From: Escherichia coli
GTDB taxonomy: Bacteria > Pseudomonadota > Gammaproteobacteria > Enterobacterales > Enterobacteriaceae
Assembly (NCBI RefSeq): GCF_045037415.1
Contig: NZ_CP173438.1
Direction: 5' to 3' (one strand)
DNA: 64,000 nt
Shown here: positions 45,101-54,100 of the stretch, in pieces
Numbering within the stretch: position 1 is the stretch's first letter
Layout of the letters: every line of letters begins with the position of its first letter
Position numbers: made by a program

Positions 45101-48100
45101 CTGTTATATGGCGAATGACAGCAAAGGCCATTTTGTTACGGCGAAAGAAGCAGCGAAGCACAACCGCCAGGACGTTTTGTGCTGTGTGTCCTGTGGATGC
45201 CCGTTAACACTTCAGCGGGGCAATGACGGACAACCACCGTGGTTTGAACATGACCAGATGACTGTCGCTGAGAAAATCCTGCTGCGATGCACCTGGCTTG
45301 ACCCGGCAGAGAAAGAGGCCCGTCGTTTGCATCTGCAGGGTATGACGGTTCCGGATTATACGGTGAAGGTGAGAAAGTGGTTTTGTGTGATGTGTGACGA
45401 AGATTATGAAGGAGAAAAGTGCTGCCCGAGTTGTGGTACCGGGGTATACAGCAGGGAGGGGGGGCTGCAGGAAGGCAACTGGAAGGATAGGAACTGAGCG
45501 GTTCAGTCGCGGAAATCAGTTGTAGAGCTGTAATGATATCTCCGGGAGTGCTGCGTTGGTAGGGGCATCCCGGGATAGAGAAATTTTAGCACTTTGCCCT
45601 GAATGATTGTAGACGTCCCGGGTACTCGTACCGGTCTGAGTTATTACAGTTAGATATTCACTTTTTCTCCCGCATACTTCACATCTGTCAACGACGGATG
45701 AAAAGTGGTTCTTCCGCAACCTGGGTGGAAGAAAATGGATGAAACTTTCTGGCGAACAAGGATCTAAGCTGTTTTAAGTTATGGGCAACGCAATGCACTC
45801 TCTTAAGACACTTCTACAGTTACCTTGCGGATGGCGATGCAGTCGACAAATTATTAGCTCTGACGGTATAACCCTCCATCTCCACGGAAAACGCAAAACA
45901 GCACAATGTCCTGAATGCTTTAAGCGTAGCGACTCTGTTCATAGTTGTCGTCGGCGCCGGATACAGCATCTACCCTGCTCAGGGCAGACGCTATGGCTTG
46001 TATTTTCCGTCCGCCACTGGTACTGCCGTAACCCGGCTTGTTAACGTAAAATTTTTGCCGAGTCGCTTGCTCCCTTCGCCGGTTCACACCAGCAGTCTTC
46101 ACAGGCGTTACAAAATTTACAACGTCAACTGGGATTAATAGCTGGAGGTGAGGCTGGAAAACGGGCTGCAACGGCAGCGGGTCTCCGTTGCAGTGCTGAT
46201 ACTCTTCTTCGCAGGGTTATCAATACCCCGGAGACGAAACAGTCAGGCGCGCCTCATGTCGGTATTGATGAGTGGGCGTGGCATCGGGGCCACTGCTGCG
46301 GTATGTTAATAGTCAATCTTGATACTCACCGTCCCCTCGTCCTGCTTCCCGGCCGTGATCAGCGTACGCTGGCGACCTGGTTCAGAAAATATCCGGAAAT
46401 ACAGGTTGTCTCGCGTGATCGCAGTGGAGTCTATGCGACAGCAGCACGTGAAGGTGCACCTCAGGCCAGACAGGTGGCCGATCGATGGCACCTGCTAAAA
46501 AGTATTGGTGATGAGCCTGAACGAATGATGTACAGACATATGCCTCTGATACGTCTTGTTGTCAGAGAGTTATCACTGAAGAAATCACCTGAGCCAGAAA
46601 TATCTGTGCCTGTAGCATCGCTCCGTCGTCCGGAACGCCTTAAACAGCAAACCCGCAAAAAACGGCATCAGCATTGGACAGAGGTTATGGCCCTGCATAA
46701 CAAGGGATGTAGTTTCAGGGAAATATCCCGTATTACAGGCCTGTCGCGAGTGACAGTCAGTCGCTGGGTGCGTTCAGGAACATTCCCTGAAATGTCAACC
46801 CGGCCTCCAAAGCGAGGGCTTCTGGACCCATGGAGGGAGTGGTTAAAAGAGCAACGAGAAAGTGGTAATTATAATGCCAGCCGGATATGGCGGGAAATGG
46901 TGGCCCAGGGGGGGACAGGCAGTGAAACCATCGTCAGGGATACTGTTGCCAAATGGCGTAAAGGCTGGAACCCACCGGTTACTACTGCCGCAAGACTTCC
47001 TTCAGTGTCCCGGGTAAGCCGCTGGTTGATGCCCTGGAGAATAATCAGGGGCGAAGAAAATTATGCATCCCGATTTATTAGTCTGATGTGTGAAAAAGAA
47101 CCGGAGTTGAAAATAGCACAGCAACTGGTACTCGAGTTCTACCGTATTCTGAAAACCTAAAATAAATCACAGCTAAGCAGCTGGTTCACTCGAGTTCACG
47201 AAAGCGGCTCAGCAGAACTTCGGTGCGTAGCTGCGGGGATGGAAGCTGATGCTGCGGCTATATGTGAGGCAATCAGCAGTCGCTGGAGTAATGGTGTTGT
47301 CGAAGGTCATGTAAATCGCCTGAAGGTGCTGATACGCCAGATGTATGGTCGAGCCGGATTTGAACTACTTAGGCGGAGGGTAATGAGTCCACTGGCATGA
47401 AAATCTTCACCTAGGTTGCGGAAGAGCCACTTTTGCACTGTTCGTGACAGTATGGCCTTTATGTACTCACTTTGTTACCGGTAGCTGAATCATCACTACC
47501 GTGCTGCAAATGGTGGTGAACAGCATCAATTGTGGAATGAATGTTGCCGAAGCGACCAATGCGCCTCGTTTCCACCATCAGTGGTTGCCGGACTAGCTGC
47601 GTGTTGAAAAGGGTTTAGTCCGGATACGCTCAAGCTGCTGGAAGCAAAAGGTCAGAAAGTGGCGCTGAATGAGGCGATGGGCAGCACGCAAAGCATTATG
47701 GTTGGGTCGGATGGTGAGTTGTACGGCGCATCCGACTCGCGCTTGGTGGATGATTTAACGGCGGGGTATTAATTGACATCCCCCGGCGCAGTGTGCCGGG
47801 GGATAATGGTTTTATGCGGTCAATAATCGTCCGGGATTATCGATACAGAGTTTTTTGAGGATCGTTTTATCGACGCCGCGCTCCGCCAGATAGGCCAGAA
47901 AAACATCTGGAACAAATCCCCAGCCATTACCGCCATTTTTAGCCCACATTTGTTTAAGGAAGACATCGTGGCTGAGAACAAGCTGATCGGCGTATCCCAA
48001 CTCAATGAGATGAGCGACGGCATCGGCAGTCTCCTGCACCCCTGGCGCTATTCCCTCTTTCGGGAAGGTAATGTCTAGGCCAATCATGTCGAATTCCAGC

Positions 48101-51100: not shown

Positions 51101-54100
51101 TGACCGGGATACTGTTTTTTTGCGCCAATGTGATCGCTTGTTGCAGAGCGGTATAATTTGTTTCGAGCTGCAGAAGTATGACATCAGAATTAATAATCGC
51201 TTCTTTCTGAATAGTTATTTCATCGGACGACATTGTCATGTTGGCACCGGGATAGATCGCAATAACATTATCGCCAGTACCTTCATTAACAAGGATCGTG
51301 GCAGTTCCGGTTTGCGTTTCTTTCGTTTGATAAATTATACTTTTATAAATCTTAGACGAATTCATAAAGTTGATCGCATAATCACTAAAGTGATCTGTAC
51401 CTACTTTTGTTATGAAATAAACATCAGTATCGGCAAAGCTTGCTGCCAGCGCTTGGTTACAGCCTTTTCCCCCCGGTGAAAATATAAAATTACTTGCCAG
51501 AAGCGATTCTCCGATAGTGGGAAGCCTCGGCAAATAACTGATGATATCAACATTAAACGAACCAATAACGCATACTTGACTTTTCATAGTTGAGTGGCCT
51601 TTTTTTATTCCCTGGGCTGTATCATAATTTTCAAGCGCATAAGCGATTTCATTTTTCGCAATAGTATCAAGCGAGTCTAGGACGATAAAAGCACCGCCAT
51701 GACATCGAGTCAGATAGCCAAGCCTGGCAAGTTCATTAAGATCTGATCGAATAGTTTCTTTCGTTACATTGAGGCTATTGGACAGATCGGATACTTTTAC
51801 AGAACCGAATTTACTGAGTCGTTTCAATATTTCATGATGGCGTTCAAATTTCATGCTTCACCTCACTTCAGTTACGTTAATATCTATCGATGTATATTGA
51901 TGTGATAATCACCATAAAGTGGCGGGGAAAAGCAAAAAAAAGCAAAAATAGCCTGAGAAAAGGTAAGCGTTAATGGAGAATCATATTGATGCTTATTTAT
52001 TGGTGAGAACTACGTTCCATGGCAGGAGTTCATCAATACGGTTGGAAGGTTATTCCGGCAGTACGCTCAGGATATGGCGCAGATACGCTTCCGGATCAAT
52101 GTCGTTCAGAAGGCAAGTGCCGATAAGCCCATACAACAGTGCACTGCGCTCGCCGCCGAAGAACATAAAGTTTTTATTTCCGAGACAGATGGCACAAAGG
52201 GCTTTTTCCGCGGCATTATGTCTGCCTCCGCCTGACCGTCAACACTGTAATAACAGAGTGCGCCCCACTGATTCAGTACACAGCTGAACCATTCACCCAG
52301 TCTGGATTTTTGGATAGCGTGGCATTTTTCTCCACCATGCATGCAGTGAGTCCAGTAACAGTTTGCTCTTCTTCTGCCTGACCACAAGATGTGCTGGACT
52401 GGTAAACGATGGGGATACCTGCTTACGCGAGAGCAATAAGTGGCTGGCCACAATTCTCGGTACAAAACTCTGCTGAATAGCAGCGATTTTCCCAGCGTGG
52501 TGCGTCGTTTGCATTTTACTGGTTCTAAGTTAACAATTATCTGTTCACTAATGACTACTCTAAAAACTTGTATCAGGACTATCACTTATTTAAGTGATAT
52601 TGGTTGTCTGGAGATTCAGGGGGCCTGTCTAGAGAGATATAAAGATACCTTCACCCCGGTGATGATAAAATAAAAGTATCTCAGCTATTAAACTGATGTA
52701 CGATTCGGGCAATAACTTATTCGTATAGAGCACCTTTTCTCTGGTGCTCTATACGAATAAGTTATTGCCCGAAATTAATTATATTGTTTATTATCAAACC
52801 GAGTTATAGCTTTTCTCTGAAAACTACCGAATAAAATATACTGATAGACTGCTGCCTAGAATTTCCAGATCAGGTGGGCTGCAAGTTGCAGACCGTTATA
52901 ATCATCGGTTGGGGTGTTGAACCACACTTTACCTGCCGTCAACCCGAGATTAAGTTGCTCAGTCAGCGGTTGAATTCGTTGCAAACTGATGCTCTTCATG
53001 CTGCCGTAGCGTGTTTCTGGCGTCCAGTCGTAGGTGTAAGCACCTGTTCCGCGGCTTAGCCATAGTTGCGTATAACCAGCACCGCGCGGGTCCTTCAGAC
53101 GCACGGAAATCATATTGCTATAACTACTACCTGCATCGCTGGAGTCATAATGGGTATAGCGGTAACTGGTGATCACCGGGCCAGTATAGAGTGATACGCC
53201 GCCTTGCCAGGCATTGACTTCGACATCATCGTAATATTTAGTGTAGCGATAACCGGTCGTGAAAAGCGTTTTTGGCAACAGGGCTAGGTTAATATCCTGT
53301 CGAAAATCCTGGCGGGCAAAGACCGGCGTATTATCCGCAAAGGCAATACCCGTTCGGGTTGTCAGCCAGTTATTCCATTTGTACCAGACTGCACCCTGGC
53401 CGCGAGTGGCATTGAAATGTTCAGTTTCATAATCACGACGCCCCTGGGAAAGATTAAAAAGCAGCGTTGCGTTTTCAACTTTTGCTACCAGTTCAGCATA
53501 CGCTAAATTACGGTTGCCATGTTCGCCAGAATAATCGGTAAAATCGTAGCCCGCGGTAATGGAAGTTAACCCGGCATAAGCGGGCAATGCACTAAAAAAA
53601 AACGGCACTAATAACGTATGCTTTATCATTTTAATCTCCTGTACGGATAAGTTCTTGTCGGAGTGAGTAAGTTCCACTAGGTAAATTACGTTCTACAATC
53701 ACGCGCGGGCCAAGTTGTGTGTTCGGAGAAATAATTCGCCCAGGCAAAATAATAACTTGTACGCCAAGGCGTGAACGCTTCCCGATATAACAACCTAATT
53801 TATCGCATCCGGTAGCGATAATTCCCTCTGGAGTTCGAACAGACACGGGTTGTTCATCCAGACGATGATTACTGGTACGTACTTGTGCGCCCAAATATGC
53901 CTGGTTTGCAACTACCGAGTCGGCAATAAAGCATTGCGGACCAATCGTTGCTTCCGCTTCAATAACCGCATTTTTAATTTCGGTGGCAAAACCAATTTTT
54001 ACGCCATTGCTGATTATTGTGCCAGGACGAATAAACGCATAATTACCTATCAGGCAGTTTGCGCCAATCACTACCGGCCCCTGAATAACGGCACCGTGGC

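Follow-up and report, generated by a model that had tools for sequence, protein, structure and literature searches.

The rikA operon of an Escherichia coli mosaic island, an orthologue of Salmonella STM3547-STM3550 with a possible role in ribose-conjugate salvage

We analyzed a 64,000-nucleotide (nt) stretch of Escherichia coli contig NZ_CP173438.1 (assembly GCF_045037415.1; hereafter the window, numbered from its first letter), focusing on a minus-strand unit of four genes at positions 47812-51854 that begins with a DeoR-type helix-turn-helix (HTH) domain fused to a PfkB-family kinase. Judged by protein identity and gene order, the unit is the E. coli orthologue of Salmonella STM3547-STM3550 (rikA to STM3550). 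This gene cluster has already been described in the literature: McCormick, Jabbar and Escalante-Semerena (Mol Microbiol 2026, PMC13432705) identified STM3547 (RikA) as a ribose kinase and noted a conserved cluster, with Escherichia among the listed genera. The reading we favor, tentatively and with slightly less than even confidence, is that of an accessory, horizontally acquired operon for the salvage or catabolism of a ribose-containing compound.

The unit consists of four intact, co-oriented open reading frames (ORFs) with spacings of 13, 53 and 2 nt and a G+C content of 40-48% for the four genes. Its coding features are as follows (aa, amino acids; PTE, phosphotriesterase).

51854-50640, minus strand: rikA orthologue, 404 aa; HTH_DeoR at residues 5-56, linker at 57-89, PfkB at 92-382 (Pfam)
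51587-50640, minus strand: kinase-only rikA ORF from Met90 (residues Met90-404)
50626-49868, minus strand: gene for a PF07090 GATase1_like protein (formerly DUF1355), STM3548 orthologue, 252 aa
49814-48849, minus strand: gene for a DMT_YdcZ membrane transporter, STM3549 orthologue, 321 aa, two PF04657 repeats
48846-47812, minus strand: gene for a PTE-family hydrolase (amidohydrolase superfamily), STM3550 orthologue, 344 aa

A first-pass annotation of this DNA had called a co-oriented four-gene operon and proposed an uptake and catabolic role. The operon stands, with its ORFs intact and its coordinates exact, and the role is still the most reasonable reading, having also been proposed in the 2026 paper for the Salmonella orthologue. 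The calls of a DeoR/PfkB fusion, a DMT transporter and a PTE hydrolase were likewise borne out, but the second protein is not ThuA: the ThuA profile (PF06283) did not match the 252-aa product, which belongs to PF07090, with a ThuA-like fold as the nearest other one.

Protein identity to Salmonella is 80% for RikA, 81% for the PF07090 protein, 93% (92.6%) for the DMT_YdcZ transporter, the best conserved of the four, and 87% for the PTE hydrolase; in RefSeq, the E. coli gene is in part already annotated as 'rikA: ribokinase RikA'. The gene order in Salmonella enterica is acetyltransferase, HTH-PfkB (homologue cluster P0007), PF07090, DMT_YdcZ, PTE and ggt. A genome-context check supported the earlier claim of a conserved unit, with the same order found in Salmonella, Citrobacter, Klebsiella, Budvicia, Providencia and Proteus. 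In Salmonella, RikA phosphorylates ribose in vitro (Km 2.0 mM), with Asp343 essential, and RikA alone sustains growth on ribose but not on deoxyribose (PMC13432705). The window RikA retains the corresponding RbsK motifs, namely N-x-D, GGKGxNQ, the Glu of LQLE, NETE (NxxE) and the catalytic Asp343 in GAGD343AF. The suggestion of a phosphorylated sugar as substrate is hence not supported, since the orthologous kinase acts on free D-ribose and all RbsK ribose-binding and catalytic residues are kept.

In the pathway we favor, the compound would be imported by the DMT_YdcZ permease, and the PTE-family hydrolase, with a binuclear metal center, would strip an acyl/ester (or amide) group, as suggested by the esterase activity that a citing paper ascribes to its relative Pmi1525. 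The PF07090 protein would then free ribose, a step to which gene association points, and RikA, with ATP, would convert D-ribose to ribose-5-phosphate, as demonstrated for the 80%-identical Salmonella protein. Full-length RikA would probably bind a conserved T-rich element upstream of its own gene via the DeoR-type HTH, and a shorter, kinase-only RikA could start at Met90.

The case for ribose draws on the company that PF07090 genes keep across bacteria. We scanned PF07090 neighborhoods, taking a single genome for each species, and retained 80 loci, in which the following partners were counted.

PfkB kinase: 65 of 80 loci
rbs-like ATP-binding cassette (ABC) transporter ATPase: 59 of 80 loci
M20 ArgE/DapE deacylase: 43 of 80 loci
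PTE-family gene: 30 of 80 loci
DMT_YdcZ gene: 24 of 80 loci
BtpA/SgcQ protein: 14 of 80 loci
ureidoglycolate-lyase-like protein: 12 of 80 loci

The stable core is thus PF07090 plus ribokinase across phyla, while transporter and hydrolase vary; the hydrolase slot is interchangeable between PTE, M20 ArgE/DapE deacylase and a proline-iminopeptidase-family hydrolase. This core occurs as far apart as Enterobacterales and Succinivibrionaceae on one side and Bacillaceae and Paenibacillaceae on the other, with 58-84% identity of the PF07090 protein (58-66% for the Bacillaceae and Paenibacillaceae proteins). The Bacillaceae kinase adjoining PF07090 passes the curated ribokinase cutoff (357.7 vs 299.65 bits) and has rbs-like ABC transporter genes alongside. 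This stable pairing suggests that the sugar is indeed ribose and that the substrate is one of its conjugates, which narrows the substrate search to ribose conjugates and provides a first functional lead for the PF07090 family. Paralogous HTH-kinase fusions also head operons of other composition: one with a RihC-like nucleoside hydrolase, NupC, a major facilitator superfamily (MFS) transporter and an M20 peptidase; one with an ABC transporter and an ADP-ribosylglycohydrolase-family protein; and one with a DHDPS-family protein, DUF386 and an MFS transporter.

As a separate observation, four Bacillaceae loci (L037, L053, L055 and L070; ~6000-14500) share a recurrent ten-gene arrangement, seemingly an uncharacterized pathway, made up of a LacI regulator, ribokinase, PF07090, BtpA/SgcQ, a second PfkB, a sugar-binding protein, an ABC ATPase, a permease, a PTE-family protein and an M20 deacylase.

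The PF07090 protein itself matches PDB entries 2gk3 (STM3548; E 5e-146) and 3soz (STM1381), both from structural genomics, and no NCBIfam model matches either it or the DMT protein. In a sequence comparison, its strand 117-121 (LLMIG) runs into an invariant G-G-Y124, with no Cys at the place after the central strand where class I glutamine amidotransferases, which have a His/Glu triad as well, carry their nucleophile. The residues invariant in the family are H20, H23, E36, E37, D82, N86, E131, K133, D154, R155, E157, D223, C224 and H227, the D223-C224-x-x-H227 group lying away from the central strand. These features suggest an enzyme whose active site is unconventional and may depend on metal.

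Several points weigh against ribose salvage as we have laid it out. The window RikA scores 285.4 bits and thereby falls just below the 299.65-bit ribokinase equivalog cutoff (NCBIfam TIGR02152). The kcat/Km of Salmonella RikA for ribose is ~50-fold under that of RbsK, and its authors propose that ribose is possibly an off-target substrate; expressed from its native translation signals, the protein was recovered only as a 35-kDa form from Met90, without the HTH (PMC13432705). Proteus has Ala at position 90 and no start codon there, so the two-isoform idea is not general, and, instead of an operator, an UP element or bent DNA could account for the T-rich motif. The Pfam label of the transporter family is 'putative inner membrane exporter'. 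Finally, a literature search on the function of DUF1355, PF07090 and STM1381 returned nothing relevant.

The kinetic point lends itself to a different order of events, close to the first-pass idea, in which RikA acts on the imported conjugate or on a pentono-lactone and the PTE or PF07090 protein then cleaves the phosphorylated intermediate; PsuK/PsuG on pseudouridine and the phospho-furanose lactonases would be the models. RikA is a poor ribokinase next to RbsK and its authors propose moonlighting (PMC13432705), phospho-furanose lactonases occur within the PTE family (a weak match here), and nucleosides are substrates of other PfkB kinases (NCBIfam matches). We nevertheless consider phosphorylation ahead of cleavage unlikely. 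The hydrolase scores 42.7 bits against the 630-bit cutoff of the phospho-furanose lactonase model NF045706 (and is similarly below the cutoffs for PHP, NF007373, at 108.1 vs 486 bits, and OPH, NF041153, at 82.6 vs 500 bits), every RbsK ribose-contact residue is retained in RikA, and the Bacillaceae kinase beside PF07090 is a bona fide ribokinase by curated cutoff. The lactonase score, together with the description of the nearest solved relative, Pmi1525, as an esterase in the citing paper, also speaks against the sugar-lactone or lactonase function suggested initially.

The hydrolase gives a full-length match to Pmi1525 of Proteus mirabilis (PDB 3rhg/4qsf, E 4e-174) and a PF02126 match. The metal ligands of PTE and amidohydrolase proteins are an HxH motif, a bridging Glu or Lys, two His residues and an Asp, and the motifs H23-x-H25, E166, H199, H229 and D294 are all kept. 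Pmi1525, the closest solved relative, is described as a promiscuous esterase; a later paper that cites it refers to it as a metal-stimulated PTE-family esterase and to Rsp3690 as likewise a metal-dependent esterase. The transporter carries its two PF04657 repeats at residues 10-154 and 169-303.

An esterase next to a DMT protein might also form a detoxification and export module, in which the esterase would inactivate a xenobiotic ester or phosphonate and the DMT protein would pump out this compound or its product, the kinase being only loosely linked. In work by Xiang et al. (2015), Pmi1525 reportedly hydrolyzes methylphosphonate and carboxylate esters, and the known substrates of Pmi1525 and Rsp3690 are artificial ones. 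The citing paper backs the esterase activity alone, and the exporter label of the transporter family would fit such a module. We hold this to be very unlikely, however, as the PF07090-ribokinase pair lies inside sugar-import ABC operons in Firmicutes and beside an amino-acid permease in a Salmonella paralogue on the ttr side (see below), and in every enterobacterial locus a tightly packed unit begins with the kinase gene.

Ribose salvage as proposed here includes a regulatory part, which depends on the N-terminal head of RikA. HTH_DeoR is present in the window protein (PF08220, residues 5-56, E 4.9e-15), and the DeoR C-terminal sensor DeoRC (PF00455) finds no match in it, PfkB filling residues 92-382. 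The fusion had been called unusual and turns out to be common, since 109 of the 120 best-matching homologue clusters, in which identity goes as low as 46%, have both domains. It could nonetheless be that RikA is only a kinase, its N-terminal 89 residues not being made, so that there is no working regulator-kinase fusion. The tagged Salmonella product from native signals is ~35 kDa (the tag being C-terminal) and RikA 90-404 complements growth on ribose (PMC13432705); Met90 is kept in Escherichia, Salmonella, Citrobacter, Budvicia and Klebsiella, with an AAGG/AGAGG stretch ~10 nt upstream, and Providencia has GTG at this position. These points notwithstanding, a kinase-only RikA appears improbable to us. 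The ratio of nonsynonymous to synonymous substitution rates (dN/dS) is 0.06-0.19 for codons 1-89 vs 0.02-0.08 for the kinase domain in nine species pairs, and the Shine-Dalgarno sequence before Met1 is invariant, from which we infer that the head is translated and selected. The HTH match, the retention of the fusion among those 109 clusters and the Ala at position 90 in Proteus argue in the same direction. By its substitution pattern, then, the DNA-binding head of RikA is under purifying selection, and the simplest reconciliation with the 35-kDa product would be the existence of both forms, or else a long form of low abundance or one that is cleaved in laboratory-grown cells. The locus makes it tractable to ask if an enzyme-regulator fusion can be produced in two isoforms.

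The following regulatory and RNA elements were located in and around the unit.

51855-51949, minus strand: conserved 5' regulatory region of rikA; homology to Salmonella and Citrobacter stops at 51949
51948-51929, minus strand: T-rich 20-nt motif TTTTTGCTTTTTTTTGCTTT
51918-51901, minus strand: TTTATGGTGATTATCACA element
51864-51859, minus strand: Shine-Dalgarno GAGGTG
49838-49863, minus strand: intercistronic GC-rich hairpin right after the PF07090 stop codon, -16 kcal/mol
47778-47804, no strand assigned: palindromic hairpin with a 12-bp stem between the PTE stop codon and a ggt remnant; T-run on the plus strand only

The DNA 5' of rikA contains, in 18 species, an invariant TTTYTGNTTTTTTTTGSTTT, a TATGRT...ATCACA element and a GAGGT Shine-Dalgarno core. 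The 20-nt motif TTTYTGNTTTTTTTTGSTTT occurs once in each of the cluster-bearing loci (25/25; L002-L030, L064), 75-95 nt before the rikA start, and was found nowhere else in 91 loci or in the window, where the chance expectation is 0; in Providencia and Proteus a second copy lies further upstream. It contains two TG steps spaced 10 nt, and the nucleoside-hydrolase paralogue operon has a similar pair of upstream elements. For the TATGGT-N-ATCACA element, a CRP site is a possibility only: the right half, TCACA, does not vary and TGTGA-N6-TCAC is found in the ttr-side paralogues, but the left half matches just 2-3 of 5 bases in Escherichia, Salmonella and Klebsiella. A sigma-70 consensus scan gave 10 sites vs 10.3 in shuffled sequence, so no promoter was called, and a permissive Rfam scan of 47300-52500 returned no known RNA family.

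Every species examined has a GC-rich hairpin of its own sequence immediately 3' of the PF07090 stop codon. Its position is kept, and its sequence is not, across five genera including Klebsiella, Budvicia and Proteus (L002, L006, L007, L021), and the hairpin at 49838-49863 shows one compensatory change, G-C to A-U, in Salmonella. An intrinsic terminator was rejected on account of a U-run that is weak or absent in most species, and a role in mRNA stability or attenuation is more likely. A hairpin after the PF07090 gene agrees with the two-transcription-unit prediction cited in PMC13432705. The hairpin at 47778-47804 is probably a shared terminator of formerly convergent genes.

A still broader proposal, which strikes us as possible but doubtful, would make the E. 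coli unit one instance of a widespread pathway. Here PF07090 would be a new kind of ribose-freeing enzyme acting on conjugates, for example ribosylated or acylated amino-acid-like ones, with PTE, M20 or alpha-beta hydrolases trimming the other substituent. RikA would be produced as two isoforms: at the conserved T-rich operator, the full-length protein would sense a ligand and repress, whereas the product from Met90 would simply be a kinase.

The accessory character of the unit is evident from its surroundings and distribution. The window is 100% identical to E. coli chromosomes of the sequence type 131 (ST131) type, and the RefSeq annotation of the identical segment places mobile-element remnants around the unit (IS, insertion sequence).

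52050-52388, minus strand: IS66-family transposase fragment, upstream boundary of the unit
47479-47811, plus strand: degraded, frameshifted 3' end of a second gamma-glutamyltransferase (ggt) gene, 333 bp, homologous to the Salmonella flanking ggt
45781-47400, plus strand: ISL3-family transposase pseudogene, downstream boundary of the unit

DNA homology to Salmonella and Citrobacter spans 47479-51949 at ~76% identity and includes 95 bp 5' of rikA as well as the ggt end. Since the ggt end is included, E. coli would have inherited part of the rikA and ggt arrangement long ago, with IS elements trimming it later. Recent transfer from Salmonella was rejected on account of the DNA identity of just ~76%.

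Of 5426 complete E. coli genomes, 1905 carry the full cluster (at least 99% identity); they originate from humans, animals and the environment, and ST131 and O104:H4 strains are among them. With the IS66 fragment and the ISL3 pseudogene on either side, these counts agree with the first-pass annotation, which had placed the operon in an IS-flanked accessory island. It had also named pseudogenes in close relatives as something that would refute its reading, and these were seen in part: ~870 more E. coli genomes hold fragments only, typically 852 bp of the PTE gene, and several strains have IS insertions inside the cluster, while the cluster is full in the 1905. In Klebsiella michiganensis it lies beside a relaxase gene. 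In Providencia alcalifaciens (L022, 6755-10528) the kinase and PTE ORFs are apparently truncated, to 171 and 202 aa, a sign that the operon may be decaying in this species. Such remnants, along with the IS fragments and the ggt stump on the flanks, would be expected if the E. coli unit were decaying cargo, a hitch-hiking leftover of a mosaic island with no current function. We give this little credence, because none of the four ORFs is disrupted in the 1905 complete genomes of varied host and source, where identity is at least 99%, the promoter-proximal 95 bp are retained, and purifying selection acts between species.

Other parts of the window hold gene groups of separate interest. In the same mosaic island, 52856-56110 (minus strand) encodes a YaiO-family outer-membrane beta-barrel, a hexapeptide acetyltransferase, a YaiP-like glycosyltransferase and a PIG-L/LmbE-type deacetylase, a packed, partly overlapping cluster that looks like a polysaccharide synthesis or modification module. 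At ~57100-58960 (plus strand) lies a pair of genes, PAPS-reductase-like (PAPS, 3'-phosphoadenosine 5'-phosphosulfate) and IbrB-like; the preceding 56001-57000 is just 31% G+C. At 43927-45497 (plus strand) an inovirus Gp2-family gene is followed by two zinc-ribbon protein genes adjoining the ISL3 pseudogene. A trio at 23397-27750 (minus strand), comprising a patatin-like phospholipase, an RdcB-family protein and a dynamin-family protein beside CP4-44-type yee/cbtA-cbeA genes, may be a defense or membrane-remodeling module.

Taken as a whole, the locus would represent an orphan nutrient pathway in bacteria of the gut and urinary tract. About one in three sequenced E. coli carry it, as do Salmonella, Citrobacter, Klebsiella, Providencia and Proteus. 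The cluster itself is ordinary accessory metabolism that has already been described; the most useful new leads are that PF07090 is paired with a ribokinase across phyla, that the HTH is under selection and that a motif 5' of rikA is conserved.

Among known systems, the closest is the Salmonella rikA-STM3550 locus, with which the E. coli unit has in common the gene order, Asp343, Met90, the upstream motif and the intercistronic hairpin. Unlike that locus, the E. coli unit has no adjoining intact ggt, sits in an IS-bounded mosaic island and occurs in about a third of complete genomes. Salmonella also has a ttr-side cluster adjoining Salmonella pathogenicity island 2 (STM1382-STM1379, 3soz being STM1381), in which an HTH_DeoR-PfkB fusion is followed by PF07090 (64% identity), a hydrolase and a transporter. 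It differs in having a proline-iminopeptidase-family hydrolase and an APC amino-acid permease, and both Salmonella and Citrobacter have it between ttrA and pykF.

Within the PTE family, the window hydrolase compares with Pmi1525 and Rsp3690 (3k2g, of Rhodobacter sphaeroides), and Proteus mirabilis (L021) carries the same four-gene cluster. A chain of 9efa ('phosphotriesterase-related protein'), which we take to be a phosphotriesterase-related protein (PTER) proper, gives 129 bits against the window hydrolase, vs ~90 for E. coli PHP and parathion hydrolases. Mammalian PTER, which hydrolyzes N-acetyltaurine and N-acetyl-beta-alanine (PMC11374699, PMC13311154), belongs to the same family but is distant (E 2e-36), and nothing ties the bacterial enzyme to N-acetyl amino acids.

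RikA resembles the enzyme-regulator fusions BirA, NadR and PutA and the HTH-PfkB protein YeiI in joining a DNA-binding domain to an enzyme, whose ligand could be the signal. It departs from them in that a DeoR sensor domain is replaced by the kinase, and its DNA binding is only predicted. At the level of the operon, the logic is like that of the rbsDACBK-R, rih, psuK/psuG and yegTUV salvage operons, which combine a transporter with an enzyme that cleaves a bond and a PfkB kinase of the ribokinase type. Unlike these ribose and nucleoside salvage operons, the E. coli unit has no recognized glycosidase, and the candidate cleaving enzymes are its PF07090 and PTE-family proteins.

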